Source: Bilabrum cf. latius (Eukaryota). From it: a stretch of 64,000 bases of DNA. Positions 17,715 through 47,099 of the stretch are shown here, in pieces (position 1 is the stretch's first letter; each line of letters opens with the position of its first letter). Below the pieces are notes generated by a model, which searched no databases, had not been told where the DNA came from, and saw nothing but the letters and a program-made list of their open reading frames with translations. The stretch spans positions 1,550,001-1,614,000 of the forward strand of contig OZ237737.1 of the NCBI GenBank assembly GCA_965178125.1. Direction: 5' to 3'. Both the position numbers and the translations under genes were made by a program.

Positions 17715-20700
17715 ATGGCTCCGGGCGGGCGTGGATTCGGTGTGCCTGCCAGTGTGCAGTGGTGTCCAGTCCAACACACTTGCCCGAATTGCACACGATA
17801 TGCATCACAACGAATCTACGGCAAGCAGTTGACTTTGAGTAGTAGCATGTACAGCCACTGTCCCATCTTCACGTCATGGAGAGCCCTGCCTCTCTAGTGC
17901 CTGTTGCAAGGTGTGCTGCTCGCGGTCGTTTGGAGCGCGTATCCAGCTTCACAAGCAGGTGGGGCCAATCCAACACACAGCATCTTTGTGGGAGTTATTG
18001 CCGGCGTCGTTGCTGCCTTCTAGACTGTCGTTGGAGTGTGGGGAGTTCTATCCGTGTCTCGTCGTGGGACTCTAGGGGTGCAAGAGCCGCACCGCCTGAT
18101 CGATACGTGGTCGTCGTGGATGGCTTGGGCAATAGCATTTGCCAATGCATATCTCTGCGTGCAGCTGCTCGAGGAGCGCCACGCTGCTTCGGCGTTCATC
18201 TTTCCAGAGCGAAGAAATGGAGGCCCTCCGATTTCTGGTGCTTCCCTGTGGGTGGCCCTGCTGCATTTTTCGGTAGAAACGCAAGCCCTCATTGGTCTTG
18301 GTGATATCCTTTGCGATGGCATTGGCGTTCGTGTATTCGCCAGCCTGCAGCAGGTGGTAGGAATCGCGTTTTCAGTTTTTATCATCCAAGGCACCGTCAG
18401 GGAGATCGTGCAGTCCGCGGCAGAGCAAAGAGAGGAGCGAATCCAGAGGCGAGTACGCCGCGTGTTGCGCCAAGAAGAGGAACGCGCCCTCGAGGACCGC
18501 AGTAAGCTGCAAGATTGGATTCGACTGCAGCGCCTGCAGCAAGCCGACTTGGCCTGGCGCACTCATCCTGCCGCCGATTCGCCGAGCAAGGCAGCGCGCC
18601 CTTCGTCCCATCATGGGTCACCAGTAGGCCGCGCAGCATCAGTCGGCCGACCGGCCCCGCCCTCTCCACAGTGGCAGGACGTGGCCCCCGGCTCCTGGTC
18701 GGGGCCGAGCTCGTCGGAGTCCGAGAGCGGCAGCGTAACGAGCGAGGGCAGCGGCTGGGACGCCAGACGGGACAGGAGGCGCGGCAGCTCAGCGTCCCCC
18801 AACGGCGGCGATGATGATGGCGGCGACGACTGGGACCGGCTGGCTGGCTGGGCAGGCGCAGGGGCAGGGGCAGGCGGGGCTGCCAGCAGCAGCGGAGCGA
18901 CCGGTTCTTCCGATTCGGAATCGGAATCAGGCGGCAGGCAGGCTCGGGAAGAGCTGAGGAACAGTGGGGGCGGGCCACTGGTCCCGCCTGTGCTCGCTCT
19001 CCCCGACTCGGCCGCAAAAGCAAGTGGAGACCCATCAGGTGGAGTAGCAAGCGGACTAGGCGCTAATACCAACGGCAGCAGCAGCAGCAGCAGCGGCATC
19101 GTTGGCTCAAGCCCCTCTAGAGGCGGGAAGGAGAAGGCCACCGAGGTGGAGCAGGGCGACATGGCCCCCGGCCCCTTGTTCCCTGGCTCCCCCACGACGG
19201 CCCCGTTGAGCTCCTCGATGGTCGTGCAGCCCACAGGGGCACTGGCAGCGGCGGGGAACAACGGGGCGGGGAACAGGATGAGGGGAAGGGGCAGTAGCAG
19301 CAGCAGGCGCGCGGGCCTGAGTTTGTTGGCTCCCATGTCGCCCCGGTCTGCGGGCGGCAGCAGAGGGGCCACTCGCGGCAGCCACAGCATGCGGGTGGTG
19401 GGCACTAAGCGGAGGCCGAGCGAGGGCAGCACCCACACGCCGGCACGGCGCAAAGGCTCCACGTCTTCTAGAGATGGAAGGCAAGGAGGATGGGGGGATA
19501 TAGGTTCGGTGGTGAGCCGGGTCCGCAGCGCGCGAGCCCCAGGGAACAAGAGCAAGAGCCAGAGCCGGCTGGGAGCCCTCGCCTTCGAGCGGGTGCAGTC
19601 CATGCGGCTCATGCCCAAGCCATCTCCCGACGGGCAGCTGCTCTCGTCGGAATCTGATTCCGAGTCCGGGTCCGAGGGCGGAGGGGCGATCGCGCGCGGC
19701 ATCAGCGACAGGGGCTCGGCCCGCTCGGGCTCCGTGGGCACGGGCCGGAGCCGGGGAGGACCGGGCTCTAGCTCCAGGGGGGCCGCCTCCAGAAGTCTCT
19801 ACGCTCCCGGGGCAGCAAGCATGCGGTCCGGGACGGATGGCCTCGTGCACAGCTCCACTCTCGGCGTGGGGGCCGGGGCCCAGTCGTCGCAGGGCCGCAG
19901 CCAGCTGCCGGTGCGGCGGTGGGTGGGAGCAGCGCACGGAGACGATGGGCCCGTGGCTGCCTCGCCGCTGTGGCGGGCCCGCGGGGGCAATGGACGACTC
20001 CCCGGGTCTCCTGTGGGGAACAGCCCCCTGGGGGTGGGACCGTTGGGGCGTGCTGGTGTCGGTGGGGGAGTGCATGGGGCTGGCATTGGGGTGGATGCGG
20101 ACGGCCGGCCTCCTCCTCTATCGCTCGCTGGCAATGGCACGGGGCGTGGCTCGCGTGTGACGAGTGCAGGGCACGATGGAGGCGCCGGGGCGGGGGTCGG
20201 GCTGGGTGGCGGGTACGCGGGTGCAGCAGCACAGGTGCAGGCAGCACCGGCGGGCGCGGGGGCGACCAGGCGGCGCGGGAGGGGCTGCTGCGCCAGCTCG
20301 TGCCGGGGCCTCGCCCTGATTCTGTGCTGCCGTTGGTGTGACCTGCTTGCTCTGTGGGTAGCGGAGGACTAGGAGAGGGAGTGGGAGGACTCGAGGGTGG
20401 CCTGGGTCACCACGGGGGAGGGGTCTCCCAGGCCCGGGCCCGTGGACGTGCAGCCGCAGCTACAGCAGCGCGGGGGGGGTCTCGGGGCCCATGGACACAC
20501 CGTGGGGGGTGGCGCCTGGCGGCCTGGCCCCGTGGCGAGGACCTCATCTCGGTTTGCGCTGCTGCTGGACAGCGACGAGGAGGTCGAGGACGAGGACGGC
20601 GAAGGGGCCACTGGTGGGACCGGGAGCGGGCAGGATCGTGGTGGCAGCAGCACACCCACGGCGGTAGCTAGCCGCAGCGATAGCGTGGCAATGCGCAGTA

Positions 20701-21770
20701 GCGCGCTGGGCCCCGTGCCCCGACTCCTCTAGCCGCAGGCTCAGGCACAGAGACACGGACAAGGACTTGGCCCGGCAGTGACCCCGCACATTGCAGCGTC
20801 AGGGTCTTCCAGCGTCAGCATCGCCGGCTACCAGACGCTGCCCTTCACACCACCCGTCTCTGGAGGCGTGCGTGGGTCCAATCACCGGCAGGGCGGGCGT
20901 GCACAGGCGCAGGACGACTAGAACGGGGGTGGGTCGTGCCGCTGGGAGTGCTGCGAGCTTGCGTACGTGCTCGAGGGAACTGCGGTGGATGCCGGCGAGT
21001 GCGTGGACCTAGGCTGCTGCCGGCCCTGCGGAGAGGCATGGAGTAAGTGTACCAAGAGTCCTCAGGTCGTGTCGACCCGGCGGCAGGCCAGGCGGAACAT
21101 CTGCTGCGTCTCGGCCGTGCTCCAGGCGCTGCTGCTGACCTCCCTGCTGCTGGCGGGGCATTCCACCGCGCAGGCCCTCGTGGCCCGGCAGGCGTCTTCC
21201 CGTGAGACGATCGGGCTCTGGATCGGGGTGGTGGTACAGGCGCTGCAGGTCGTGCTACTGCTGGCCACTGCGCTCAAGTTCATCCGGCGCGCCTGGCAGC
21301 TGACCGTGTGCTTCGTGCTGCAGAGCTACGTGGCCCTGGTGTTCGCCTTCGCTGGCGTGTACCTGCTGCTCTTCTTCGTAGACCAGGACTCGCTCTTCGT
21401 GCCCAGGAGGGCGTGGACGAACCAGCTGGACATCCCGCTGGCAGCCGCGCCGCACCCCGCCTGGTTCGCAGTATCCCTGTACAGCGAGTTCGCGTACTTC
21501 GCGCTGGTGGTACAGAGCAGCGTGGGCTTCGGGGACGTGTACCCGCTGCTGTGGTGGTCCAGGCTGGCGTGCACACTGCACATGATCGTCGCGGTGGTGG
21601 CCAATGTGGCGCTGCTGGGCTTCGGGCTGACGCACGTCGGCGAGGCCGTGGCGGCTCGTCGCAAGAAGCAGCGGGACCAGCAGCAGGGCCAAGGGCTCAG
21701 CGGGATCGTGCAGGTGATGCAGACGGCTGGGTGCCTGGATGCAGAGGGGAAGTGTACCCAGGGGGGTGAG

Positions 21771-21801
<31 letters not shown>

Positions 21802-22409
21802 TGGGCTCACGTGCGTGCGGAGGGGAGGGGTAGGATGCAGGTGGTGGTGGTTCGTCGGGTGGGCCTGGTGGCAGGGCGCCCGCCCGCCGCGGCTCCCGCA
21901 GGAGGGTGGGGCATGAGATGGGCCAGGGGCAGGGGATGCACGGGAGGGGGGGCTCTGCCCCTGGCAGGCCCGGCGATGGAGGAAGCGGCACCAGTTTTCA
22001 GAGCCTGCTGTCAGACCTCGCCCAGGAGGAGGAAGGGGAGGAAGAGGGGGAGGGGCAGGGGCAGGGCACTGGGCTGGGCAGCTCGAGCCAGCCTGGAGGC
22101 GGTGGTGGAGGGAAAGGGGACGCCATCGGGGCCGGTGCAGGCGCGGGTGCTGCCTCCCAGCTGGCCCTGGAGCAGGCGGCGCTGAGGCTGGGCGGGGAGC
22201 TGCTGCGGACGGGGCCCAGGCTTCGCGCACGGGTGCCGCGGCGGCGGGAGCTGGCACGCGATGGTGGTGCTGGGCCAGGGCGGGTGGGAGTGCAGGTTGG
22301 GGTGGGGCCGAGCCGCAGCAGCAGGAGGGCAAGCGCGGGGGACGGGCTGCTGCGGGCGCCGGGCGTGCGGCTGTCTCCATCCTTGCCCCCGCGGCCGTAC
22401 AACGGCTGA
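17715..22409 (+). CDS. Potassium-channel-like protein with two pore (Ion_trans_2-type) domains and a very long low-complexity linker; 6 in-frame TAG
   Basis: Pore 1: LHFSVETQALIGLGDI. Pore 2: AYFALVVQSSVGFGDVYP. Each pore is flanked by hydrophobic helices. TAGs at 17895, 18021, 20370, 20730, 20919 and 21831; ends TGA. Confidence 0.75.
21771..21800 (+). repeat. (TGC)n microsatellite encoding a 10-Cys run
   Basis: tgctgctgctgctgctgttgctgctgctgc, in frame in the channel C-terminal tail. Confidence 0.9.
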
Positions 22410-22634
22410 GGGCCGTTCGAGGAAATCGATTATTGATCGTGCGTGGTTTCGGTGAGGCGCAGGTTTATTCATAGGCTATTTCTACACGCTTTACACCAAG
22501 CGCCTTGGCCAGACTTCGTGTGCAGAGTCTATCGGTACAGGCGCCAATTGTATGGTCAAGCCACCAGCACCAGCACCAGCACCAGCAATCCAAAGTAGAC
22601 CAGCCAGCAACCCTCCTTGCTTCCCAACTCAACC

Positions 22635-23890
22635 TCACTGCGGCCCCAGCGCTCGTCGCAGCAGTCCCTTCTGCCCCTCAGACAAGTGCGCGGGGTACTG
22701 CACGTCGAACTCGATGACCAAATCGCCTCTGCTGGCGGGGCTCTTGCTCAGCGGCATGCCCTCGCCCCTCTTGCGCTTGCTGTACCCGGGGGCCACCACC
22801 TCGTTGCAGGCGACCGGCACCTGCCGCCCGTCCAGCGTGGGCACCGTCACAGTGCAGTCGGTGAGTGCCTGCAGCAGCGAGATGCGAGCCGTGTACACTA
22901 GGTCGTTGCCCTTGCGCTTGAAGTGCGCGTGGGGCTTCTCCCCGATGACAAACACCAGGTCAGCAGGGATGACCCCGGGGGCCTCGTCCCCCTCCTTCGG
23001 GAACGTGATGGACGTGCCTGCCTTCCAGCCGGGCTTGACTTTGATCTCCAGGATCTTGGGCTCCGACCGGGGCTTCCCGTCGGACCCCACGCGCTTCCTC
23101 GTCACACGGATCCTCTTGGTGGCCCCGTTGAAGAGCTCCTCCAGCGTGCAGTTGAGCTGCGTGCGCACCGGCTTGGCCTTCTTCGGGCCGCTGCTGGCGC
23201 CGCCCATGGCCGCGCCACCCATCCTAGCAGCCATGCCGGGCATGCCTCCCATTCCCCCGAAAATGCCAGCCATGCCAGTGCCGTCGTCCTCCCCCATGAA
23301 CGAGGCGAACGGGCTGTCCGTGCCAAACACTCTCTTGAACACCTCATTCGGATCGCCCCTGAACTAGTAGCCTCCCTTAAATCCGCCACCAGCACCTCCT
23401 GTCGGCGGACCGCCTTGCAAGCCCGCCTTTCCGTACTTGTCGTAGACGGCTCGCTTTTCCTTGTCGCTGAGAACGTCGTAAGCTTCGCTAACCTTCCCAA
23501 ACATCTTCTTGGATTTCTCCTGCGGCGATACAAACAGTGCATTCAAACATAGCGTGAGACTCATCGTGCTGATGCGGACCACGAGACACACTGTCGGCGT
23601 CTGCCCAGGTGCCGCATCCCAGCTGGCATTGCGAGGCCCGCAGACCAGCAGGAGCAGTGACAGCTAATCTTACCTAGTTATCAGGATTCTTGTCCGGGTG
23701 CCATTTCAATGCTAACTTCCTATACCTGCGAAGTTGCAGAGGTGCGATATGAAACGGGGGAAACTTGTAGAATCAGCGCGAAAGAGTACGGGTTGCTTGT
23801 CGAGCCGATCTTCTGTGCTCACGCTTTCTTGATCTCCGATTCACTAGCTGATCGAGAGACTCCAAGTACCTTATAGTAATCGTCTGCCAT
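22635..23890 (-). CDS. DNAJB: DnaJ/Hsp40 class B (Sis1/DNAJB-like); introns 23726-23822 and 23520-23673; 2 in-frame TAG
   Basis: [45 protein letters not shown], then a G/F-rich region, then a C-terminal domain ([23 protein letters not shown]). Ends TGA. Confidence 0.93.
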
Positions 23891-24028
23891 GTTGGGGGGC
23901 TTTTGCTCGGAGACGTGTGCAGTATTCGCACTTTCAGAACGAACAAACCGATACATTTTGAAATAGAACGTTACAAACAACTGCAACTCCGGTTTTGGCG
24001 AATCTCCTCAGCTGTTCTGATCAGGATC

Positions 24029-24390
24029 ATGGAGCAAGGGTCCACTGCAGACGCTGGAACATCAATTTCATCTAGAAAGGTGTGCTACGGCACGCGCGAC
24101 GTGTACTTTGCGTGCTTGGGTGAGGAAACTGTGCCGGATTCATGGAAGAGTTGCAGTTGGCGTTCAGCTTCGAGCCTTTCAGCCTGTCGCTGCACTCGAT
24201 CGCAGACAAGTTCAACGATGATAAGAGCCGATGCGCATCAGAGCGAGAAGCCTACATCGGCACGTGCCGCAAGTCATGGCGCAAGTACTTTAACGAACGG
24301 CGACGAGTGGGCAAGAAGCCACCAGTCACTGCAGTATTTCCCAATGGGGCTGTCAAGGTGGATAAATCGCAAAAAAGAACCTACTTATGA
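24029..24390 (+). CDS. COA6: COA6/COX6B-family CX9C-CX10C small mitochondrial protein, copy 1; intron 24120-24205
   Basis: Spliced product SRKVCYGTRDVYFACLDKFNDDKSRCASEREAYIGTCRKSWRKYFNERR. G|GTGAG donor and CAG acceptor; ends TGA. Confidence 0.8.
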
Positions 24391-24580
24391 TGTAGACTCC
24401 GTGAAAATGCGCAGAGAGCACGAAACTGGTGCAGACACGTGTGACGATCGACCGCGCTGGTGCTCCAAGGCAAAGCTACATTCGAGCTGAGCACAACACA
24501 GCGCACAGCGCCAATTCCGAGTGCGTGACACACATACTGTTCGTAGGTCAAGCTCATTGCCGCTGGATTCTGAGGAGTCC

Positions 24581-24814
24581 ATGTCCACGTCAAATCCAGC
24601 GACTGGCCAGTCTGCCAGGCAAGCCTGCTACGATGCGCGCGACGCGTATTTCCAATGCCTGGACAAGAAGTCACCAAGCTGCGAGTCCCTGGACGTCGTG
24701 TTTCGGACAAAATGCAAGCCGTCCTGGGCAAAGTATTTCTTGCAGCTACGAAAGGGTGGCAAGCGGATCCTGCAGGTAGATACGTACAGCCAAGGCAAGC
24801 GAACAGGGAGCTGA
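24581..24814 (+). CDS. COA6: COA6/COX6B-family CX9C-CX10C protein, copy 2 (intronless)
   Basis: ARQACYDARDAYFQCLDKKSPSCESLDVVFRTKCKPSWAKYF; ends TGA. Confidence 0.8.
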   Translation: MSTSNPATGQSARQACYDARDAYFQCLDKKSPSCESLDVVFRTKCKPSWAKYFLQLRKGGKRILQVDTYSQGKRTGS

Positions 24815-24976
24815 AGAAACTTGATGGGCGATGCCAGTCCATTTGTTGAATAGAATAATCATTCTTGCCTTGAATTTGTCGCCGTCATAAACATAAAGCA
24901 GTTGCAACCGGAACCACCTTATCGGCGGGCGCCTTCGCCAATAGATCTATCCATAGAAACATCAACTAGATAAGGG

Positions 24977-27205
24977 ATGGCAGGCCCAGGATAGTTGCAA
25001 CGCAGGGTTGTTCATGGCGGCCCATTGCGCGGAAGCCCTGTCGGGAATCCGTTCTTGGCACCACCGAGCGGCTCTCCTCAACCATTTGGGGATCCGGCAG
25101 GGCAACGAAGCGATTCGCCAGCTATTGGCCAAGCGCGTAGCACAAAATCGACCACACAGCCTACCCGGGGGGTTGCTGCGAAGCCCATTCCGAGTGATAT
25201 AGAATCACTCGTGACTGCCATGTTGTCGAAGGCGGCTGGGGTTCTGTCACGGCTTTCCTCAGCTACAACCTCGGGCAATGAAGACGTAGTGGCTTCTAAA
25301 ATTGTGCAATCTTCTATGTCTGGAGATGCTTCCAAGGTGCATGCCCCGCCAGAGCTGCCATCGCATTCACTCGGTGCGTCCAGCTCGACTGCGACGCATG
25401 AAGCCATGATGCGGGCTGCAGCAGCATCCATTCGATCTGCATCGTGGACGGACGCAGCAGCGCACTCACAAGAAGCAGAACACAAGCTAGAATTGCGTGC
25501 CACTGGCACGCTAGAGGCAGACGCCGGCCCCGATTCGGACAAGACAGCAGCCGAGGCGGCGCTGGTAGCGGTGCGCTTCGCGAGGTGCGTGGCCCTTCTG
25601 CGGGCGGGCAGGGGCGCCGCGGCTCTGGATGCCGCGCGCCAGCTGCAAACATGCCTGTCCGCAGCTAATGAGAAGTCAGGTGCCGGCAGTGACTTGCCAG
25701 AAGTGCTCGCTCCTGTGCTCCTCGAAGCATCTGCTTGGCTGAGCCAGGGCCGCCCTGCCGACGCGGCCGCTGTGCTCGCCCTCGCGGCCTGGCAGGCGAA
25801 TGCGCTGCGCTCGGGAGGCAAGGAGGGCACCGGTGTGACGAGTGAGGTCAAGTCGAAGGCATAGGCTGCGAGCGGGGGAACCGGTGCTGCTTCGGGCACC
25901 TCCGCCGACACAAATGCACCGCATTGCAAGGCACCCCTTCTGGCCGCGCTGGGGAGGGCACTGCTGGAGCTTGGTGACCGTGTGACGGTTGCACCCAGCG
26001 ACGCCTACCAGCTGCTGAGCGGCGCCGTGGAGGGGGCCCGTGCCAGACGCGCGGTGGAGGGCAGCAGCAGCAGCAGCAGCAGCGGCAGCGTGCCCGCCGC
26101 CCTGGTGGCGCGACTAGCCACGGATCCGCACGATAGCGCAATGCAGTGCATGGTGTCCGCCGCAGAGGAGCTGGACGGAGAGAGGCGCGCCTCGAGCTGC
26201 GTGCACCGCATTGCGGCGTGCCTGTGTGGAAGTGTGCTCGCTTGGTCGCAGGCGGGCCGCAGTGCGCTGCAGGCCAACCGGGTGTCTGCGGCGGAGCGGT
26301 GCATGGGACGAGCCAGGGAACTAGCCGTTGAGTTTAGGAGTGCAGGCTCGGGATCGAAGAAGGGGACGGGTGACTTGGAGGCGGCGGAGGGGGCGGCGCT
26401 GGGGAGGGTCATCGAGTCGCTCCCGGCCCTGAGTGGCGGTGCATCGCACGGTGGTGCACCCGAGGTGTGGGGGAAGGACGTGCTCGTGCTTGGACGGGAT
26501 GCAGCCTCTGTGGCGTGCTGCCTGTGGTAGGACGCCGGTCTGTGCATGGTGCGGCGCGGGCTCGACTCCGAGGCCGCCGAGTGCTTCGACCTGGCAGCGG
26601 CGCTGGCAGCACGGGCCATCGGGGCGGGAGTGGGGGCGGGCGAGGGGGAGGGGGAAGGGGAGGGTGCGTTGCAAGATAGTGCTGCCGCCGCGGCATCTAG
26701 AGCCGGGCTGCCTCCGTGGGTGGGTGCAGGCCTGGGCCATGGAGCGAACAAGGCTGAGGAGGGGAGCTAGGGGGGCGACACTGCGGGCCTGCGCTCGTAG
26801 GCTAGGGGCCTGCTGGCGGCGGCGGCGGATGCTCACGCCTGCTGCGGTACCGTCGGTGTGACGAGTGCGCTGGATCTGCAGGAGCAGCTGTCGACCAGCA
26901 TGGGGAACTCGGCCCTGGCCCACGTGAGGCGGGGGGAGCTGCTCGCGGGGGTCGCTCGGCTCGAGGCAGCACTGTGCATGCACCCGCCCGTGGGCTGCAC
27001 CCCCACCCGTGCGACCAACCTGCGCACCCTATACGACCTCACGAGGACGCCCAGGAGCGCGGCGGCGCAGAAGGCGGCTGTGGCAGCGCTGGCCCGCAGG
27101 TATCGGATCACCGCGCCGGCGGCCCCTCCCAAGGAGCCGGGTGCTGGCACTGCTGGCGGAGCTGCCGCTCGCGGCGGGGCGGCGACTGCCGCTGGTCGCA
27201 GGTAA
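24977..27205 (+). CDS. TPR-like protein, possibly TRAPPC12/TTC15-related; 5 in-frame TAG; ends TAA
   Basis: Single frame with TAGs at 24992, 25862, 26528, 26768 and 26798. The C-terminal GNSALAHVRRGEL..VARLEAAL..P..NLRTLYDL resembles the TRAPPC12 C-terminus as I recall it. Confidence 0.6.
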
Positions 27206-27303
27206 TGCAGTGGGATTGGTCCTATGGTATACAAATTAGCCAACTACTGCTAGACGTCAGGTTATGTGTTTGCTTCAAGTCATGCACGGAACCGCGGCCA
27301 GAA

Positions 27304-27870
27304 TTACCCGATGAAGTTGAAGGCCGCAAAGAACAGCAAAATTGAGCAGAAGATATACTCATAAAGTCCTTGATACGAAGCAGATTTCGTATCGTATTGC
27401 TCCTTGTCTGTCATCTGGATTCGTAGCGAGCCTGCGGGAGTCGGACAAGCGTGCGATCATCAACAAGCACCGGATTGCAGGAGGTGAACGGGGCTGCGCC
27501 GCTTTGAAGGTCAACGAAACTGGCCAGTTGACTCACCTGTCAACACAAACATTCCTATCGCGCAAAAGAATGCACTTAAGAACGCATTGAACGGGAAGGT
27601 ACCGAACAGCATCATGTATCCAAAGAGCCCCACGGCAATCACGGCGCAGAACGCCATGAAGCTGTCAAGAGCCATTACCCTCGCAGATGTTTCAGATGCA
27701 TATGAGGCCCTGAGCTCATCCAAGATTCCAAAGACCTGCTGCGGCACACTCAATGCTTTGCCTACCACGCCGGAATCGGCAGGAGACGCCCTGACTCCAG
27801 GCTATGACTTGGAAGGGGTCTTGTTCGCAGCAGAGGCCGAGGACTTCTTTTTACCAGACCTTGGCGGCAT
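27304..27870 (-). CDS. DAD1: DAD1/OST2 oligosaccharyltransferase subunit; intron 27432-27536; 1 in-frame TAG; ends TAA
   Basis: LFGTFPFNAFLSAFFCAIGMFVLT|GSLRIQ...IFCSILLFFAAFNFIG-TAA. TAG at 27802-04 in the N-terminal extension. Confidence 0.92.
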
Positions 27871-28045
27871 GTTGCAATGTATATCCGCCTGGAGTGGATC
27901 AGAAATAGCTACTATCACGCGCTTACAGCTGGCCGGATCCTTTCAGCACCTTACATTGACGGAAATACCTACTGACTTCGGACCCGTTGATTGCTCTATG
28001 CAGCTTTGATTACTGCTGTATGTGCGACCGTATGCAGGTATTGTA

Positions 28046-31000
28046 ATGGAGTTAGTACACAAAAGCTGGAGGCGCGATGTTGAAAACGGTTACTGCAGAG
28101 AATGCCTGACTTTTTCAACCAGCAACGATCGAGTGGTACTTGGCAGGTAGAGGTTGCAGCTATCAGGCAAGGCCATAGAATCAGTATCTCGTAGCCACGT
28201 TGAAATTAAGCGTTCAACCGCGTGCCTCGAAGTTACCTAGCTTGGGAAGCACACGGCGACATTCATCGTGCCATCCGAATACTCAAATCGTACAGTGCCG
28301 TCCTCAGCTTTGAAACCTGTAAAGCACGGAGAATGTGAACAAGTTCCATGGGGTTCTTGTGTGATACTTGGTCTGAAGGGAGACAGCCTTCTGTTCTAGA
28401 TCCGGCGCAAACTTCCTCAAACTTCGGCGGAGGAGCCCGGTAGATTTGGACAGCAGCCAGCGTCTGCGAGTGCTGCAACGGCCGCTAGAGATCCTGGTAT
28501 GGTGCCCCCACAGCTCCCAGCGACGTAGTCTAAGAAGACTTCTTCACCTCGGAGATCGTCTGGCGTCTCCTCAAGCGCTGCTCCGCAGCCAAACCGAGAC
28601 ACCACTGGCATGCGCTCTCCTGGGTTGTCGCCAGTTGCTCGCACAGCTGTGCCAAGCGCAGCGAGCCGACCCAGTGGCACTACAGCCCTTCAACGAGCAC
28701 AAGCAGCAGCAAGGACAGGCGGGACCACCTCGGCGCATTAGTCGTCCACCGGCACGGCGAGGAGGCCAAGCACGCAGCCAGGCATTGGCCCTCACTCACA
28801 CGCACTCGATTCTGAGCCGGGATAGGGACCTCCTGTGGCGGAAATCGCATCTCATGGCGCCAATAGCATCTACCTGCATAGCCATAGTGACAGCCACGGC
28901 CACAGCCTCACCCGCGATCGCGACCGCCCAACCAGTGCTTCCGGACCTAGCGCCGGCCCCTCGCACGCCTCGCCCGCCACCAAGGCTGGTATACTTGGGC
29001 GAGTGCGGTTGTCCCTATCCCAAAGGTAGAGGGTGGTAAGGCGCAGTCCAGCGAGCCCAGGTGCAGTTGGAGCCGTTGCATTGGCATCGGCAGGGGCAGG
29101 CTCGGGCGCGGCGGTAGGCGCAGGTGCAGGTGCAGCTGCAGCAGCCGACGCCGGGCCGAGGGATCCTGTAGGTGAGGCCCAGCAGCGGCCTACTGATGTG
29201 GAAGCGGATGGGTAGTAGTCTAACTCATCGGTGCATAGTTCCCATCCACGCCGGGGCGAGTCATCGTAGGCCGGTGTCGGTATCGCTGCGTCAGGCAAGC
29301 ACTAGGCGCAATCGCCTTGCGGGCACAGCTCGGCCCAAGCCATCTGCACGGTCTGCATGCAGGAAGTGGACGAGGGCGACGAGGGCAAGCTCCCGTGCGG
29401 GCACAGCTTCTGCCTCGATTGCATCCAGACCTGGGCCAAGTGCGCCAACAAGTGCCCCAACTGCAACGAGCAATTCTTCCTGATCGAGCACCGGAAGGGC
29501 GGGGTGCTGCACGACCAGCTGCCGGTCGTGGAGAAGAAGATGCGGCTGGACGAGGAGGAGGACAGGCGGGAGGCAGAGAGGGCACAGCACGAGGAACACG
29601 CGCTGGCGTTTGCCGAGCTAGAGGCGGGGTTTGGTGGGATCGACCCGAGGGTGCTGGCGGAGGGCGTGTGCAACGTGTGCCAGTCGGGCGACCGGGAAGA
29701 AGTCCTGATGCTGTGCGATGCGTGCCAGCGAGTGTGGACGCACACGTACTGCCTGGAGCCGCCCCTCCCCGCGGTACCCGAGGGCGAGTGGGTGTGTTCC
29801 GAGTGTCTGCAGGCCAGGGCCCGGGACGAGGAGATGCGGAGAAGGGAGGCGGCGCGGCAGCTGCGGGCCCGCGCCGTGCTGGACGATGACTCGAGCGATG
29901 GGGAGGTGGAAGAAGGAGGGCTTCGAGATGGAGCCACACGCAGCAGCAGTAGCAGCAATGGAGCTGTTGCAGCTGGCAGGGGGCGTGCAGCTGGCAGTGC
30001 AGCGAGAGAACGGACGAGAGCAAGGGCGGGAACCGGCAGGGTGCCTCGATCGATTGACCTGGATAGCAGCAACGACTCTGAGAGCGAGGATGACAGCAGC
30101 ATGATGATCGTCCCGGGCGAGAGCAATCGAGGCCAAGGCCGGGCCCGAGCTGGTGCGGCAATGGTAAGAAAGGCGAACATCAGTGCCCGCGGTGCTGCCT
30201 CACTGGCGCAAGAGCACCCAGCTGGCTCGGGGGCAGTGATCGATCTTGACTCAGATCTGCTGGAGGATAGCAGCACAAGCATAGGGGTTCCTTCAGGCCG
30301 ACATGTTCGTGGTAGTAGCGGTGCTATGGCACCGGGCACATCGGCAGCATCCTCCAGACTGTCTAGGCTGAGTCGAGCCCGCGCCATGGTTAGGCGAGGC
30401 CGGACTGGAAGGCAGCCACAGCCACAGCCACAGCCACAGCGAGGCATAGCCGCTGGGGAATCTAGCAGATCGAGTCGGGTGGTCATGATCGAAGAAGACG
30501 AGGAGGAGGAGTAGGAGGAGGAAGGCAGTGATGGCGGGAAGCCGCAGCACGCTGTCAGTAGCATTCATCGAGACAGCGATGATGACGATGATAGTGGTAA
30601 TACCAGCGTGTCACGCCCCGTCCTCCACTCACGGTCTGCTGCAGCTGAGGCAGACCGTGCAGGTGCCCGGCGTACAGCTCTGCGGAAAGCAGCCCGGGCC
30701 TCCTCTGCTGCCAATATTCTGTCGCAGTCGCAGTCGCAGTCGCAGTCGCTTGATGCCTCGCAACCCTCCCCCGATAGATAGTAGCAGCCAGTCCTCAACG
30801 CCTCCGTACTGATGGGCCTCGAGACTGACACAGACTCGGACAACGACAGCTCTGACGGTCAGCGGCTGCAATCAGCGCTCGGTGGCAAGCGCAGGCGGCG
30901 CGGAGACTCCCAGCGCCGAGGCGATAGGAAGAAGAGGCTGAGACCCAGGTCGGGCTCAGCTGGAAGGCCGGAGCAGGCTGCCAAATCCAGCAGCGGCAGC

Positions 31001-31684
31001 ACTCATGCGGCCGCAAGCAGACCTGTGGGACGAGCAGTTTCTAACGTTGCGCCTCAGTCTGACCCCACAAACCTTGGCTCAGACTCGGACAGCTCGCTGG
31101 CGGCTGCTTTATACTAGATAGCGGACGAGATGGACCAGGAATACGAAAAGCAGTCGTCTAGTTCACATGTCCAGCGCCCCTCACGAGGTGGTCGTGGCCC
31201 GATTCGGTCGGCATGGGGCCAGGGTGTTGTGCCTAGACCAGTGCCCAACCAACTTGCAGCACAAGCATCCAGCGGGACGAAGCCCGGTGCACACGGGATC
31301 CAACCAGGCCAGGGCGGCTGGTCCCGCTCAGCGCTTGCTGGCCGTTCTGTGCGCCGCGGTACAACTGAAGGCTACGAGTCCTCCGCGCCCTCATCACAAA
31401 ACCGCACTGGCAATGCCGGCAAGGATCTGATGGAACGCTTCGGAAGGAGGGAAGGGGTCGTCCATGCGCAACCCCACCGGGGCAGGCCTATTCAAGTGGC
31501 ACCAGGAGGGTGGAGCCTGGCCATGGGGGGCGCCCGCGCAGCCGCTGCCGGTTAGCGGCGAGGTGGTGTGAGGGTCAATGCGGCGCCTGCCAGGCGGCGG
31601 CGGTCTGCACTCGGGGCGCTGGGGCAGGCGGGAGCGGGTGGAGTGTCCAAACCGTTTCAAATGCCGCGCCGTGCCGGCTCGTGA
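28046..31684 (+). CDS. FHA-RING-PHD domain protein (1212 aa), 16 in-frame TAG
   Basis: FHA: VVLGR*..VSRSHV..LEVT*LG. RING: CTVC..LPCGHSFCLDC..W..CPNC. PHD: CNVC..LMLCDAC..HTYCL..VPEGEWVCSEC. No TAA/TGA between ATG 28046 and TGA 31682. Confidence 0.85.
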
Positions 31685-37900: not shown

Positions 37901-40029
37901 GCGCTGGCGCCCTCCACGGCCCTGTCCACCGTGCCCTCCAGGTCGGCCAGCAGCCGCATGACCTCCTCGTCCGTGGACACGGCCTCGAGGAGCTCCCTGG
38001 CCGTCTCGCGCATGCTGGCCTCGTTGCTGAGCCTCGACACCGCGGGGAGCAGCTTGAGCAGCCCCGACTCGTCCTCGTCGCTGAGCCGAGAGACGTTCCT
38101 GGGGTCCAGGAAGACCGAGGCCAGCAGGTACAGCGTCGTCTCGATGGTCTTGCTGGCCGTTGCCACGGCCTTCTTGCCCTGCTTGCTCGACAGGAACTGG
38201 GCAGAGGCCGAGTTCTCGTCCTCGTCCTCCTCCTCGCCCCCAGCGGCCGCGGCCCCGCTCGAACCCCCCGCCCCCGCCTGCGCCCGGATCTTGGACGTTG
38301 CCAGCCTCGCGGGAGTCATGGCGATGGTCCGCATGAGGTGCGGGACGACGTCGGCTCGCACCATGACGGTGAGGTTCCGCTGCGAGCTGGCCAGGTAGAT
38401 GAGGAGCTGCGTGGCGGCCAGCTGGATGGCCACGTTGTCGTCGTGCCCGTTCATAGCCACGCACACCGCCTCGATGATGCCGTCGCCAGTGAGTGCGTCG
38501 AGGTCGTAGTCGAACACGGCGGCGGTCTCTAGCAGCTGCATGGCAGCAAGGGAGTGGTCCTCGTGCTCGGGGTACTCCTTGAGCACTGCCAACGTGCGGT
38601 GGTACGCGCGCGCCATGGCCAGCCGGCGCACCGCGTCGGGGCCCGTGGCCATGCGGTTCAGCGCGTCCGTGACAGCAAAGGCCGTGTCGGCCTCGGCGGC
38701 GTTGTCCGTCAGTGTCTTGAGCATCTGCCGCAGCGTGGCGTCGGACCCGTCCTGCTCGAGGAAGCTCGACTGCGACTCGGCGATGCGGCCGATGGCGCGG
38801 GCGGCGCCCGCCGAGGCCTTGGCGATGCCGGAGCCCAGCATGGTCTGCAGCGCGGAAACACCTCCCTCCTTGACGATTCTCTCCACATTGTCCTCCTCGG
38901 TGGCGAGGTTGGAGAGCAGCAGGGCCAAGAACTCCTGCTTCTCCTTGGGCGTGGAGGGATTTTGCATCTCGCGGAGCAGCTCCGAGACGTTACCCGAGGC
39001 CAGCTTGGTGAGCACGCGTCCTCCAATCTTGGACACGCGTTCGTTGGCCTGGAAGGACTCGGACACGCGGGCGATGCGGTCAAGCGCCGAGAACTCGCCG
39101 CGCAGCCGGTCCGCCCCGGTCTTGTCCTTGGACATGCGCTCAAAGGAGCGAAACATGGACTGCGCCACGTCGGCACGGTCCTCGTACAGCTCGTCCTCGA
39201 GCGTTTCGAGCATGATTTCAACGCCGCCGGCGTCCATCACGGCCTGTGCCCCGGTGGCCGTCTTGGTGAGGCGCTCGACCACGCGGGCCATGCCGAGCAC
39301 GACGTCCGGGCGCGTCTCCTTGAAGGCCTGCATGATGTGCAGCACCTCGCCGATACCACTGGTTTCCTCCTTCACGTTCTTGCGCAAGCTCTTGCGCGTT
39401 TTGAGAAGCCCTTCGGGGGCCTTCTGGCTGATGCTCATGAGGAGCTGAATGGTGTCGTCCAGCTGCTTGCTGGCCTTCCCGCTCTTTCCCGACATGGAAT
39501 CCAGGGAAGCGCACATCACACCAACTACATTGCGATCTACCAAATCGCTTGCGTACTTTGGGTTGCTTGAAAATCCAGAGAGGCACGCGATAGAGGCTTC
39601 CTGCACGGCCTCATCAGCGGGATGCAGCTTTAGCACGTCCAGCACCGCGTTTGCGGCCTTGTTCTCGAATGCCTGCGAAGAAAAATTGAACATACCGATG
39701 TTAACATAATGAAAACTGGGAGATGTTGGGCCGTGCGCCTGTGGTTGAGGGTGAGCGATTCATGACTCACATCCTTCAGGTTGCGCTCCCATCCGATGGC
39801 AGGCGGCGTAATCACCTGTTTCAGGCACTGAACAGAGTAGCTGGCAAGCTGCCTGAACTTTTTATGCTTCTTCACTGAAGCGACCTGTTGGGATAGGTTT
39901 ATAGTACTTATGGGCGAGTGGGAAAGGCGTCCGCGCACGGGACTGAATCATGATCGGGAAGCGCAGCTTCTGTTGGAGCCTTACCAGTCCTTTTACGCCT
40001 GATGATACGCCCCCACGTCTCGAAGACAT
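31939..40029 (-). CDS. Giant armadillo/HEAT-repeat protein (~2630 aa) with a C-terminal PH-like domain; introns 39885-39984 and 39673-39770; 1 in-frame TAG
   Basis: ORFs 35227..39693 and 31939..35202 are in frame, joined by TAG-CAG-CAG at 35229. ARM-like repeats (GGVEAII.A, ALGN). Strong GC3 bias and canonical splice sites; ends TGA. Confidence 0.82.
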
Positions 40030-40405: not shown

Positions 40406-41416
40406 TCAGTTGGTCTTCTTTTTCTTGCCACCGCCGCGCTTCCTCTGCCTAGTCACAGAGTTGGGCGCACTTCCCTTGCCCGCCCTGCTCCGCTTGGCCT
40501 GCGCACCCTCGGGCACCTTGAGGTTCTGTCCGAAGCCCTGCTCGGAAGCAGCCGCGCCGGCAGCCGACTTGGAGGGAGAGATAAACTCCATGACGCGCTC
40601 CCCGGCCAGCACCATGACCACCACTCCGATGACGCCCACGGCGAAGAGCACCTGGAAGGTGGACTCGACCGTCACGCTCCCCTGCAGCGGGTTCACCAGC
40701 TGCACCGTCTCGTTGAAGAACAGGTTAGAGTACAGGCGGTCGTCGTCTCCCTCTTCGAAATACAAGACCCTCATCTCCATCTGCACCGGCTGCGACAGCA
40801 CGTTGCCCATGTGGAAGTTGTAGCTCAGCGAGGCCTCGCTGTAGTGCTCGACGCGCTCGTTGATAGACTGGAAGGTCAGGTTCATCAGCACCTGAGATGT
40901 ATCCATTGGGTTGCTAAGCTGTCCCAGGATCCCAGTCACGTTCTGATACTTGTTGTTCTCATTGATGAACGCGCACAACAGAGTAACGCGCTCGTTTGTA
41001 GGGATATCTGCGCAGACATGGATCAAGAAGCACATACACGAACAATTATGGGCGCAAATCAAACATCCAACAGAATGGTCCCACTGTGATCGCAAGCATG
41101 GATTCCAAAAGGATGACGATCGTGACAAAACAGCGCAGCACAACGTGGATCGGAGCAGGGCAGCAGCTAGTACCGTCCAATCAACCCTGAAAGACACACG
41201 AGTGGAACTTTGGATATCCTCACTATTGTTCAATACACCAGGCAGATGAGAGCGGGTATAAACCTTCGTGGCTGGGGGCGGGGGGTTCTGCATGGCCCGG
41301 TGCGTGATCATGAGCTGTCCGTTGCGCGGCGGCTGGTCAGCAGGCACGATAACTTGCTCCGAGAGGCATCCTACCATTCCACACACAACTGCAAGCGCCC
41401 CTAAAGCCAACTTCAT
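40406..41416 (-). CDS. SSR1: Translocon-associated protein alpha (TRAP-alpha/SSR1)-like; probable intron 41008-41223
   Basis: Signal peptide, lumenal domain (NVT.I.G.L..P.D...NLT..EASLSY.F..FFNETV), one TM helix and a basic tail. GTGAG donor and CAG acceptor; ends TGA. Confidence 0.75.
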   Translation of the reverse strand: MKLALGALAVVCGMVGCLSEQVIVPADQPPRNGQLMITHRAMQNPPPPATKVYTRSHLPGVLNNSEDIQSSTRVSFRVDWTVLAAALLRSTLCCAVLSRSSSFWNPCLRSQWDHSVGCLICAHNCSCMCFLIHVCADIPTNERVTLLCAFINENNKYQNVTGILGQLSNPMDTSQVLMNLTFQSINERVEHYSEASLSYNFHMGNVLSQPVQMEMRVLYFEEGDDDRLYSNLFFNETVQLVNPLQGSVTVESTFQVLFAVGVIGVVVMVLAGERVMEFISPSKSAAGAAASEQGFGQNLKVPEGAQAKRSRAGKGSAPNSVTRQRKRGGGKKKKTN

Positions 41417-41573: not shown

Positions 41574-43337
41574 ATGCGACTCACCGCGAGCGCATGCTGT
41601 TTGTTGGGCAGTGTAGTACTGGCGCAGTCCGATGCCCCGACACAGATTCACATTGGTCTGGCTGGGCAGGACGCCCAGGGCAGGTGAGTGCTGACTGTAC
41701 TACTGAGCGAAACACGCGACTGAAGGATGCTTTCGCTCTAGCACCGTTCCAGTTGTTAAGTTGTGCTGTCGAAGTACTTGTTGAGGTTTGCCCATCGCCA
41801 AAGTTTCTGGTTGGGCGTAAGGAGCTGCCGAAGTGCAAGCGAAGATGCAGCCTACCGAAAGTCGGTGCTCCCCACGTGTGTCTCGCCGTGTCTTGGACTC
41901 GCCCGTGCTTGCAGGTCTGACGGAATGGTTGCTAGCTGGTAGACCAAGGGGGCCACCGATACTTCCATCGTAATGTGGGGAGAGAGCCCGCAGTCGCTGG
42001 ACAAGACGGCGTCAGGCACTTGCGCAACCTACCTGCCCGGAGACGATGAAGGCAGCTTCTCGCACCACGCGATCATGACAGGGCTCAGTCCTTCGACCTC
42101 GTATTTCTACAAGGTGGGCGATGCCACCGCGGGCTTCTCGGACGTGATGCAGTTCAAGAGCTCCCCCGCCGCCACGGACGACTCCACCATTTCCTTCATG
42201 CTCTGGGGCGATATGGGCGCTGCCAAGCCATCTGAGTCGAACCAGTCCATCGAGCTGATCCGTCAATTCCACAAGGAAGGACGCGCGGATTTCATGCTGC
42301 ATGTCGGCGACGTGAGTGCGGAGTGACTGGAGCGATGGCTTTCCCACCCACCCGTAGTCTAGTCAGCTGCCCCTGCACTGCACCTCTCCTCACTCTCTAC
42401 ACCCCCTTGCCCCAAGTCTTGGCTTCCATTCCATCCCCCCTCGTGCATTGCATTGCAGATCAGTTACGCGGACGACTACTTGCTGGTGGACCCCCTCAAG
42501 TTCGGGTACGAGCAGACCTGGAACACCTTCATGGACGAGATGAGCCCCGTGGCCAGCAGGCTGCCGTACATGGTGCTCCCCGGCAACCACGAGGCCCAGT
42601 GCCACAGCCCTTCGTGCATCCTCGAGACGTCTGACAGGGGACAGCGGCTGACGAATTTCACGGCCTACAATGCGCGCTTCCGCATGCCTTCACCCGAGAC
42701 GGATGGCGTGATGAACATGTGGTTCTCGTACAACTACGGGCCCGTGCACTTCGTCCACATCGACACCGAAACGGATTTCCCGGGGGCGCCCATGGATTCG
42801 TACGTGGGCCTCGAGACGGGCGGGTTCGGCAGGCAGATGGACTGGCTGGCCGCGGACCTCGCCAAGGCCTCCTCCCCCGAGGAGAGGAAGCTGCGCCCCG
42901 TGATCATCGTGGCGGGGCACAGGCCCGTCTACTCGGTGGACTCCACCGACGGGCACGGGAATCCCGCGGGGTCTGCCAGGTCGCTGCAGGCGGCCATCGA
43001 GCCCTTGATGCTGCAGCACAACGTGACCCTCTACCTCTGCGGGCACAAGCACTCGTACGAGCTGCACTGGCCCGTGGCAGACGGCCAGCTTGTGCAGCGG
43101 TCCTTCTACAAGCCGAGGACCCCCGTGTATATGGTGCAGGGAGCAGGAGGGAACATCGAGTCGTACACGAGTTATTCTAACGACCCAGCGCCGTCGTGGG
43201 GCCGCTACTGGGAGGGCACCTACTGGGGCGTGGGGCTCATGACCGTGAACCGCACCGCCGTCTCTTGGGAAATGTACTCGGCCGCGAACGGGTCGGTCAC
43301 GGACACGATGCTGCTCACGCTCCCCTCCGGGCTGTGA
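41574..43337 (+). CDS. Secreted purple acid phosphatase (metallophosphoesterase); introns 41684-41914 and 42312-42458; 1 in-frame TAG
   Basis: Signal peptide; FN3-like N-domain (PTQIH, MVASW*T, YFYKVG); metal motifs GDMG, GD|ISY, GNHE, GHRP and GHKH. TAG at 41940; ends TGA. Confidence 0.92.
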
Positions 43338-46351: not shown

Positions 46352-46520
46352 GGCAGGTATCTGCGCTATCCCGATATCAAACCGAGCTTGACGGTACCTC
46401 AATGCGCTGACGCCGTCACACACTCAAAACGAACCTTGCTGGAGGTTCGGCTGGGGTTCGTCATTCGTGGCGGTGCACTCTGCCACGTATTCATTCGATC
46501 ACAGAATTGATTCCTTGGAG

Positions 46521-47099
46521 ATGGCCGTTTCGTCCGTGCGCCGAGTTTCGAATCTGATGTCACGCACGCTTCAAATCGCTCGAGGAGGCAGGCGGCTCTT
46601 CCATGTGTCTGGGGGATCCAAGATCGCCGTTGGCGACGCGATCCCTGCGGATGTTCCTGTCCAGGACGGTGCTCCGGGTGAGACAAAGCCGCTTGGAGAC
46701 CTGTTGGGAAAAGGAAAGAATATCCTTACCGGCGTACCGGCTGCGTTCAGCCCAACGTGTAGCGAGACTCACATTCCGGGATACATCGAGCATGCGGATG
46801 CTATCAAGGCGAAAGGGGTCGATGAGATCTACGTGCTGAGCGTGAACGATGCGTTCGTCATGTAGTAGTGGGGGAAGCAATTGGGCGCGGATGGCAAGGT
46901 GAAGATGGTTGCGGACGTGGACGGGGCCGCAACAGCGGCAATGAACGAAGGGTTCGTTGCGGAGGCCGTGTTCGGGAAGTCACCCAGGTCAACGCGGTAT
47001 GCCCTGCTCGTGGAGGACGGGAAGGTTACCCAGGCGCTTCTTGAGGGAGGCCCCGGGTTCGAGAAATGCTCCGCGGAGGAGATGCTCAAGCTGCTTTGA
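46521..47099 (+). CDS. PRDX5: Type II peroxiredoxin (PRDX5-like) with a mitochondrial-type presequence; tandem TAG TAG in frame
   Basis: GVPAAFSPTCSETHIPGY..SVNDAFVM**WGKQLGA..RSTRYALLVEDGKV. TAGs at 46863 and 46866; ends TGA. Confidence 0.93.

Follow-up and report, generated by a model that had tools for sequence, protein, structure and literature searches.

The window, the whole stretch of 64,000 nt analysed here, comes from a genome of about 65% GC and carries genes for an IFT139/TTC21 protein, a two-pore K+ channel-like protein, DnaJ, DAD1, an FHA-RING-PHD protein, a purple acid phosphatase, peroxiredoxin-5 (Prx5) and a RecQ/BLM-like helicase, among others (Table 1). Several of the genes that bear in-frame TAG codons have full-length Pfam support. 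Over 13 gene spans (16,266 codons) the reading frame holds 64 TAG codons and no TGA or TAA; the +1 frame of the same spans holds 71 TAG, 245 TGA and 14 TAA, and the +2 frame 84, 182 and 31, respectively. TAG counts in and out of frame are similar (64 vs. 71 and 84), and TAG is a sense codon here, far above chance expectation. UAA and UGA still act as terminators: of the 16 gene ends, 13 have TGA, the main terminator, three have TAA and none has TAG, a sample small enough for rare dual use of UAG to be possible. A glutamine meaning for UAA as well does not fit these genes, three of which terminate with it; about 11 in-frame TAA codons would be expected if TAA were read like TAG (from a CAA:CAG ratio of 111:657), and none was observed.

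Table 1. Codons discussed in the text (x, residue at a TAG; flanks, identical residues among the ten flanking the site).
Feature	Position	Strand	Relatives, homologs or context	Pfam score (bits)
In-frame TAG, BNR/Asp-box repeat (SHDGGxTW)	4674..4676	-		BNR: K 28.3, E 28.1, Q 27.8, L 27.0, Y 26.0, S 24.2
In-frame TAG, IFT139/TTC21 (SSFNxARHSGRWG)	8824..8826	+	L in 8bda_E; K in 8fgw_D, 8hmc_C	ARM_TT21_5th: K 157.3, Q 156.8, E = S = 156.4, L 155.8
In-frame TAG, two-pore K+ channel-like protein, first half	18021..18023	+	Pairs with Q of second half
In-frame TAG, DnaJ (GGYxFRGDP)	23364..23366	-	Lys in P0005 (82% identical), 9/10 flanks
In-frame TAG, DnaJ J domain (HPDKNPDNx)	23674..23676	-	Final codon of exon 2, then GTAAGA
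Window CAG, Gln 345 of ORF 24977-27205	26009..26011	+	TAG in L001 (757-759), 5/10 flanks
In-frame TAG, ORF 24977-27205 (CCLWxDAGL)	26528..26530	+	Met in L001, 6/10 flanks
TAA terminator	27203..27205	+	End of ORF 24977-27205
TAA terminator	27304-27306	-	End of DAD1
Window CAG, Gln of DAD1 (SLRIQ)	27415..27417	-	TAG in L001 (2323-2325), 8/10 flanks	DAD, L001 exon: Q 30.9, K 28.5, E 28.2, R 28.1, S 27.7, X 27.4
In-frame TAG, FHA region (LGRxRLQ)	28148..28150	+	Ser in L001/P0269, 6/10 flanks
In-frame TAG, FHA region (VTxLG)	28238..28240	+	His in L001/P0269, only 2/10 flanks	FHA (weak): Q = E = 13.4, S 13.8
In-frame TAG, FHA region (SLLFxIRRK)	28397..28399	+	Also TAG in L001 (4058-4060), 7/10 flanks
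Window CAG, Gln 569, PHD finger (LCDACQRVWTH)	29726..29728	+	TAG in L001 (5363-5365), 10/10 flanks
In-frame TAG, FHA-RING-PHD protein (AAALYxIADEM)	31115..31117	+	Q in P0246, 9/10 flanks
In-frame TAG, purple acid phosphatase N-terminal exon (VASWxTKG)	41940..41942	+		Pur_ac_phosph_N: Y 71.3, Q 71.2, K 70.4, E = S = 70.2, L 69.4
Two adjoining in-frame TAGs, Prx5 (FVMxxWGK)	46863..46868	+	QQ in ortholog P0125
TAA terminator	47189-47191	-	End of RecQ
In-frame TAG, RecQ/BLM-like helicase RQC domain (NQLFxDGLL)	48839..48841	-	L in human BLM	RQC: S 42.1, Q 41.4, K 41.3, E 40.8, L 40.7
In-frame TAG, RecQ zinc-binding region (EYRRxMQELD)	49208..49210	-	H in human BLM	RecQ_Zn_bind: Q = E = 54.8, K 54.3, S 54.1, L 52.9

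If the code were unchanged, these TAGs would have to be explained by introns, RNA editing, pseudogenes, assembly errors or occasional read-through. Spliceosomal introns do exist in this organism, and TAG 23674 lies exactly at an exon end. However, the transcript contigs of runs X5-X7 are RNA-like, with a poly(A) trace (the poly-T loose end at 22532) and four spliced joints (154, 97, 86 and 105 nt), and they cover 16 TAGs with no base difference at any of them. The only two differences listed are at 17623 and 17683, neither at a TAG, and none of the splice joints in these contigs excises one. Positions 17769-19990, including the channel TAG 18021, are spanned unchanged, as are 30825-31297, including TAG 31115, and the spliced contigs join 23518 to 23673, so that TAG 23674 of DnaJ is retained in the mRNA. 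Conserved genes and mature mRNA both carry TAG. An unchanged code is also at odds with the absence of TGA and TAA beside the 64 in-frame TAGs, and with an independent metagenome contig from a relative (L001) that behaves alike (16 TAG, 0 TAA and 0 TGA in 920 codons) and has kept a TAG at the orthologous FHA site; we regard it as hardly credible.

To read the residue, the window and its relatives were aligned under a fixed rule, with no gap two or fewer positions away from the site, a set number of identical residues among the ten flanking it, and comparison in both directions (window TAG against relative residue, and relative TAG against window residue). With at least seven identical flanks there are six informative columns, five with Gln and one with Lys (binomial P = 8.5e-7, for a background Gln frequency of 4.3%). 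With at least five there are 12 (P = 4.7e-6), six with Gln, two with Ser and one each with Lys, Arg, Met and Ala, three of the Gln matches being TAGs of L001, which is assumed to use the code of the window. The non-Gln half of this looser set counts against glutamine. In BLOSUM62 log-odds, Gln leads the next residue by 7.5 bits over the six columns and by 10 bits over the 12. In three cases DNA was read for both partners, and each time the window has CAG opposite an L001 TAG. The one in the PHD finger is also Gln in a 90% relative (P0245), and at the 'LRIx' TAG of the L001 DAD1 exon Gln beats any other residue tested by 2.4 bits in Pfam DAD. L001 also holds the run CAA-CAT-CAG-TAG-TAG-CAG-CAG.

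In the FHA-RING-PHD protein, the Gln match at TAG 31115 is to an 82% identical fragment of 247 aa (P0246). It also has the one FHA position (28397) at which TAG is common to the window and L001, which argues that both share the code; another fragment, P0269, terminates exactly there. At least two related lineages share this use of UAG. Close relatives sharing the code are the decisive evidence for glutamine, rather than the motif hints of the initial annotation, whose proposal that UAG most likely encodes glutamine is nonetheless the best-supported reading, mostly through relatives outside its list.

In Prx5, the TAG pair at 46863/46866 had been thought to fit a polar residue, and both codons exist and are QQ in P0125, the sister of the window protein in the tree (support 100/97), with KA in outgroups. 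At the second column Ala is found in 116 of 120 homologs and Gln in P0125 only. The tree-aware normalised site likelihood is best for Gln, which exceeds Lys by 4.0, Ala by 7.4, Glu by 8.5 and Ser by 11.7 bits.

DnaJ is the main counter-example, and from it a lysine reading, in which a tRNA-Lys with anticodon CUA would decode UAG, draws much of its support. At TAG 23364, which is Lys in the 82% relative, the tree-aware likelihood places Lys above Gln by 4.7 bits. The J-domain TAG 23674, also cited as fitting a polar residue, is on the minus strand, and its column leans towards Arg/Lys: among the nearest 25 of 120 homologs, 23 align, with Arg in eight, Lys in seven (15 together), Gln in three and other residues in five, and Lys exceeds Gln by 2.2 bits. 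The two columns sum to 6.9 bits in favor of Lys, and Lys is still ahead by 2.9 bits when DnaJ and Prx5 are pooled. Pfam likewise prefers Lys to Gln at the fifth ARM of IFT139 and at the BNR repeat, and Lys is present in two of three structure sequences for IFT139. Against this, Lys occupies only one of the six high-confidence columns and one of the 12 looser ones (Gln, five and six), trails Gln by 8 to 10 bits in BLOSUM62, 4.0 bits in Prx5, 2.6 bits in the Pfam sum and 2.4 bits in Pfam DAD, and is contradicted by CAG in all three window codons opposite L001 TAGs. To our knowledge, such a code has been reported for no nuclear genome, and we consider lysine very unlikely.

Summed over eight Pfam families with nine TAG columns, Gln scores 806.1 bits, Glu 804.1, Lys 803.5, Ser 799.3 and Leu 790.7, so that Gln ranks highest, by a narrow margin of 2 bits over Glu and 2.6 over Lys. 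Single columns favor other residues, namely Lys in IFT139 and BNR and Ser in RQC. UAG has been reported to encode glutamate in one ciliate, and UAR to do so in Blastocrithidia; here, a glutamate reading can point to that small Pfam difference, to the second-ARM column of IFT139 where Glu is best (195.6 bits), to TAG 30512 within a GAG run, and to one L001 TAG opposite a window Glu with just 2/10 flanks identical. Glu is, however, absent from the relative-aligned columns (0/6 and 0/12) and lies 7.5 to 10.5 bits behind Gln in BLOSUM62 and 8.5 bits behind in Prx5, which makes it less probable still than lysine.

Serine has a reported precedent in the green alga Scotinosphaera, with an identical stop pattern (PMC8271138). 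Two of the 12 relative-aligned columns have Ser, RQC favors it, and the channel repeat pairs TAG 17895 with it. Serine nevertheless falls short of Gln by 6.8 bits in the Pfam sum, 12 to 13 in BLOSUM62 and 11.7 in Prx5, and the DnaJ tree places the organism among stramenopiles and not green algae; the chance that UAG means serine here is slight. Leucine (the reading in a rhizarian and some ciliates), tyrosine and tryptophan have a negligible probability. Two sites had been described as tolerant of Leu, and this residue does occur there, at 8824 in Chlamydomonas IFT139 (8bda_E) and at 48839 in human BLM, but Leu has the lowest of the listed Pfam scores at both; a third such site, TAG 5201, belongs to no supported coding sequence, as it precedes the start codon of IFT139. 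Tyr is marginally the best residue in Pur_ac_phosph_N. Over the eight families Leu is 15.4 bits below Gln, and Tyr, tested on five, is 8.1 bits below (275.8 vs. 283.9); Leu, Tyr and Trp are 16.5 to 30 bits behind in BLOSUM62 and occur in none of the 12 relative-aligned columns. A leucine code was rejected on these grounds.

The domain motifs first put forward for glutamine give it weak support. The halves of the channel do self-align (score 71; 200 shuffles gave at most 54) with TAG 18021 paired with Gln as claimed, yet the same alignment supplies the Ser at 17895. For 'VTxLG' (28238) and 'SWxT' (41940) the codons are real, but Pfam slightly prefers Ser in the former and Tyr in the latter. All of the cited TAGs exist, most of them where they were reported, on the plus strand at 28238, 18021, 41940, 46863/46866, 15942, 30779/30782, 52857, 13559, 30512 and 8824, and on the minus strand at 48839. 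Those given as 16551, 17154 and 17172 are real, although these coordinates mark the preceding CAG or CAA and the TAGs start at 16554, 17157 and 17175; likewise, 35229 is the last base of a minus-strand TAG (35227-35229). The adjacency of TAG to CAG/CAA holds at the listed sites but does not exceed chance overall (P = 0.07): 9 of 122 TAG neighbors are Gln, and 2000 within-gene permutations gave 5.1 on average.

Taken together, UAG is most probably (a probability of roughly 0.9) an ordinary sense codon for glutamine in the nuclear, GC-rich genome of a stramenopile. Its decoding would fall to a tRNA-Gln whose anticodon, CUA, differs by a single base from that of the CUG isoacceptor, alongside an eRF1 that would no longer recognize UAG; both a tRNA-Gln of this kind and a change in eRF1 have been described for other lineages with UAR-to-Gln reassignments. 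No tRNA genes were found in the 64-kb window or in L001, and no eRF1 gene is encoded within the window.

In the DnaJ tree, the nearest named relative of the organism is Cafeteria. UAG for glutamine is an already known type of code change, here in a lineage for which no report was found, and our literature search retrieved no published case of a nuclear code change in stramenopiles. We lean slightly towards the view that this is the first, and that UAG means glutamine, with UAA and UGA retained as terminators, throughout an undescribed clade of flagellates related to Cafeteria. The proposed clade would comprise the window organism, a relative at 82-90%, and another, less close, with 58% GC and conserved gene order. 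If true, it would represent another independent uncoupling of UAG from UAA, in a GC-rich genome with UGA as the main terminator.

A sense UAG for glutamine with UAA and UGA stops corresponds to NCBI table 15, and UAR for glutamine is of the table 6 type. The latter is found in many ciliates, hexamitid diplomonads, some Ulvophyceae, Streblomastix and Amoeboaphelidium (PMC11687900). As here, a UAR stop is read as Gln, presumably by an anticodon-changed tRNA-Gln, but those codes also reassign UAA, which in the window has no in-frame occurrence and ends three genes. UAG is the sole reassigned codon in Rhizaria sp. exLh and some phyllopharyngean ciliates, where it is listed as Leu (PMC11687900), the residue rejected here. 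TAG alone is also reassigned in Scotinosphaera sp., with TAA and TGA remaining stops (PMC8271138); that organism is, however, a green alga using Ser, which fits the present stramenopile poorly in both Pfam and BLOSUM62. Iotanema spirale (Fornicata) is described as reading UAG as Gln and terminating at UAA and UGA (Panek et al. 2017, PMC5304391; PMC11687900). By that description it matches the present case in that UAG alone has changed meaning, to glutamine, and UAA stays a terminator, although it is an unrelated anaerobic metamonad, and the organism here is a stramenopile of about 65% GC with UGA at 13 of 16 gene ends. UAG, and not UAA, is likewise given as Gln for Protocruzia tuzeti and two phyllopharyngean ciliate lineages (PMC11687900); these are ciliates (alveolates) and ours a stramenopile flagellate, but the code variant is the same, having arisen repeatedly and independently.

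The eukaryotic genes of the window were recognized via Pfam and are listed in the table below. The 64-kb stretch is GC-rich (0.59 to 0.72 in 4-kb bins), and its long ORFs are broken by TAG only. A 27-nt tandem repeat at 15741-15830 encodes three copies of LAPDxLQGE (x, here and below, marks a TAG), with one TAG per copy, and its copy number varies, as one contig of sequencing run X8 is without one unit (missing at 15759). The TRAP-alpha ORF contains an in-frame segment that is predicted from its sequence to resemble an unspliced intron, and the DAD1 transcript extends over 26671-27894, into the 3' end of ORF 24977-27205, which converges on it.

Table. Genes of the window, and TAG codons covered by transcript-like contigs.
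Feature	Position	Strand	Remarks
IFT139/TTC21	5248-9735	+	Pfam
PAQR/HlyIII protein	11807-13567	+	Pfam
Cyclin-like protein	end at 17354	+	Pfam
Two-pore K+ channel-like protein	17496-22409	+	Pfam
Class-B DnaJ, with introns	22532-23890 (region noted: 22532-24813)	-	inside spurious + ORF 22443-23660
ORF 24977-27205	24977-27205		convergent with DAD1; ends in TAA
DAD1 (OST subunit)	27307-27870	-	one 105-nt intron; inside spurious + ORF
FHA-like/RING/PHD protein	28022-31684	+	Pfam
2584-aa ARM protein	31939-39693	-	Pfam
TRAP-alpha ORF	40406-41416	-	Pfam
Purple acid phosphatase	41760-43337	+	at least two predicted exons, 41760-42326 and about 42450-43337
NRAMP			Pfam; predicted ORF without N-terminal exon
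Peroxiredoxin-5 (Prx5)	46467-47099	+	Pfam
RecQ/BLM helicase	47189-51562	-	Pfam
3790-aa ARM-like protein			Pfam
Covered TAGs	13289, 13559, 13899, 14223, 17895, 18021, 20730, 20919, 23364, 23674, 29213, 29216, 29267, 29303, 31115; 26768/26798		26768/26798 in part

The in-frame TAG codons reported in the initial annotation are real. Across 13 gene spans (16,266 codons) there are 64 TAG, no TGA and no TAA in frame, compared to 71 TAG, 245 TGA and 14 TAA in frame +1, and 84, 182 and 31 in frame +2; TAG is thus as common in frame as off frame, while TGA and TAA are barred from the coding frame. The 16 gene ends use TGA (13) or TAA (ORF 24977-27205, RecQ and DAD1), and never TAG. If UAA also specified glutamine, about 11 TAA codons would be expected in frame from the relative use of CAA and CAG (111:657), and none was observed. 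Where the 'cyclin' ORF extends 5', TAGs 13653, 13704 and probably 13818 are non-coding, since the PAQR mRNA ends near 13723, and were left out of later counts. The density of TAG differs strongly between genes and drops with rising GC3, from 16/1220 codons in the FHA-RING-PHD gene (GC3 0.62) to 8/3790 in the 3790-aa protein (0.81) and 1/2584 in the ARM protein (0.94). In its usage TAG resembles a rare synonymous codon rich in A/T.

Contigs from three sequencing runs (X5, X6 and X7) were placed on positions 11700-31699. No run with the window sequence (X9-X13 contain small shares of it) is recorded as RNA, and the transcript nature of these contigs was judged from their behavior: they skip introns of 154, 97, 86 and 105 nt, have a poly-T loose end at 22532 that corresponds to the DnaJ poly(A) site, and differ in depth about 40-fold between genes. 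Sixteen TAGs are covered, with zero base differences at any of them; the contigs list just two differences, both elsewhere (17623 and 17683). Neither splicing nor RNA editing therefore takes these TAGs out. For example, TAG 23674 is the final codon of DnaJ exon 2 and is kept in the mRNA, and the joints 23518>23673 and 23723>23821 are CT..AC, i.e. GT..AG on the minus strand. A third joint in the DnaJ contig (24118>24205, 86 nt) is GT..AG on the plus strand, the opposite orientation. No strain variation at TAG codons was seen among the contigs of X5-X8.

The top-scoring named sequence for DnaJ belongs to Cafeteria roenbergensis (58% identity), and further stramenopiles come next. A tree of 54 DnaJ sequences, the one gene on which the stramenopile placement is based, groups the window and P0005 (a database protein 82% identical to that of the window) with Cafeteria (P0007), P0008 and P0009 at 93/85, nested in a 100/99 clade that holds all six named stramenopile sequences. 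A green alga had been considered, as the top PDB match of IFT139 was Chlamydomonas and the nearest NRAMP cluster was rich in Streptophyta, but the DnaJ matches and tree overturned this. The relatives' fragments retrieved by database searches share the code, with predicted proteins that begin or end at TAG positions. Public entries P0246, P0247 and P0269, from the organism or its relatives, are fragments ending at TAG (P0246 immediately before window TAG 31553); P0245 (a 90% relative) is also a fragment. The first residue of P0005, another such piece, is a Met that lies five residues past TAG 23674, and P0006 starts 12 residues past TAG 23364. The latter is 99% identical to the window DnaJ, with one F/Y difference, showing that a second strain exists. 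Identical sequence (0 differences in the listed pieces; 11700-31699, X5-X8) is found under three coded organism labels (B, C and D), which would fit a co-cultured bacterivore that may travel with other cultures.

The initial annotation had read UAG as glutamine, in part because TAG often sits beside CAG or CAA, an argument that does not hold up in a permutation test: 9 of 122 neighbors are Gln versus 5.1 expected (P = 0.07). A likelihood that compared the residues around TAG to those around each amino acid was uninformative and was dropped, as R, P or G scored best depending on how wide the context was set. The domains were also rescored in Pfam, each candidate residue in turn being put in for TAG; the score difference is the residue log-odds at the aligned columns. 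Summed over eight families (nine TAG columns), the scores were Q 806.1, E 804.1, K 803.5, S 799.3 and L 790.7 bits, and in the five families tested with Y, Y reached 275.8 versus 283.9 for Q. This rescoring excludes hydrophobic residues, but the lead of Q over E and K is only 2 to 2.6 bits. In PDB alignments the Prx5 TAG pair is GE in human PRDX5 and DA in 2wfc, the BLM columns are H and L, and the IFT139 column is L in 8bda_E and K in 8fgw_D and 8hmc_C. Judged from these aligned sequences, TAG columns vary among distant homologs, and PDB alignments alone are of little use. An IFT139 search of a word-indexed protein library gave three matches only, low-complexity words having crowded the candidate list.

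The glutamine assignment is supported, mainly by comparisons with close relatives, which lay outside the evidence of the initial annotation. In the Prx5 tree the window and its ortholog P0125 are sisters (100/97), with P0127, P0126 and P0130 forming the next clade. P0125 reads FVMQQWS opposite the window TAG-TAG, where outgroups have KA; at the second column 116 of the 120 homologs have A, and P0125 alone has Q. The site likelihood on this tree, normalized for amino-acid frequency, favors Q over K by 4.0, A by 7.4 and E by 8.5 bits. DnaJ points instead to lysine: TAG 23364 is Lys in P0005, with 9/10 flanking residues identical, and the two DnaJ columns, evaluated on the tree, favor Lys over Gln by 6.9 bits, or by 2.9 bits when combined with Prx5. 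The balance shifts from Lys to Gln only after adding the P0246 column and three reverse comparisons, in which a relative has TAG where the window has CAG. P0246 (82% identical over 245 residues) reads SLAAALYQIADE opposite SLAAALYxIADE of the FHA-RING-PHD protein.

The reverse comparisons come from L001, a metagenome contig of a relative (6405 nt, 58% GC) with the same gene order as the window: the ortholog of ORF 24977-27205, DAD1 (minus strand) and FHA-RING-PHD. Its proteins are about 38-39% identical overall to those of the window, and its DAD1 lies at 2215-2740. TAG in L001 faces CAG in the window at LCDACxRVWTH (10/10 flanks identical), at SLRIxMTD in DAD1 (8/10) and at xLL in the ORF 24977-27205 ortholog (5/10). 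Against Pfam DAD, the L001 exon scores Q 30.9, K 28.5, E 28.2, R 28.1, S 27.7 and X 27.4 bits; a PDB search with this 42-aa exon gave no match. These comparisons assume that both organisms read TAG alike and that the exon boundary of DAD1 corresponds in the two, L001 being known from DNA only. A shared reading is supported by an FHA TAG that is TAG in both (7/10 flanks identical) and by the common TAG-only pattern, the L001 FHA-RING-PHD gene having 16 TAG, 0 TAA and 0 TGA in 920 codons. L001 also carries CAA-CAT-CAG-TAG-TAG-CAG-CAG. ARAGORN found no tRNA genes in the window or L001, and metagenomes searched with the 3790-aa protein yielded no relative.

All pairwise alignments were then held to one inclusion rule, with no gap within 2 positions and N/10 flanking residues identical. 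At N >= 7 there are six informative columns (Q 5, K 1) plus one TAG-TAG column, at N >= 5 twelve (six Q, two S and a single K, R, M and A), and at N >= 3 twenty (Q 7). The binomial tails at 4.3% Gln are 8.5e-7, 4.7e-6 and 1.3e-5, and the BLOSUM62 log-odds of Q over the runner-up are 7.5, 10 and 9 bits, respectively. The non-Gln scatter (K, R, S, M, A; with lower confidence E, H, N) matches the substitutions that would be expected at Gln sites. Of the three other meanings graded here, lysine is very improbable, glutamate more so and serine the least probable. We put the probability that UAG encodes glutamine at about 0.9.

The standard code chops the genes of the organism and of its relatives into fragments, so the correct code is needed for annotation and phylogenomics of the lineage. 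The full-text literature searched contains no account of a stramenopile with a changed nuclear code, the most promising papers carrying the terms in their reference lists only, although most subscription journals and supplements were beyond reach and such a report may exist. The case adds a member to the known UAG-only to Gln variant and probably marks a clade of Cafeteria-related stramenopiles. It gives studies of code evolution another independent change of this kind, in a lineage and a compositional setting (65% GC, mostly UGA stops) that differ from those of known cases. UAG and UAA usually change together, and there are few cases in which they differ in meaning; the present one bears on why the two mostly shift jointly. 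UAG alone is reported to be read as Gln in Iotanema spirale (PMC5304391; PMC11687900), Protocruzia tuzeti and two phyllopharyngean ciliate lineages (PMC11687900), as Leu in a rhizarian and some ciliates (PMC11687900) and as Ser in Scotinosphaera (PMC8271138), while UAR is read as Gln in many lineages (PMC11687900). The code of the window agrees with the Iotanema/table 15 pattern (UAG as Gln, UAA and UGA as stops) on every feature tested, namely in-frame UAG in conserved genes and in mRNA, its alignment with Gln, and termination by UAA and UGA but not UAG.
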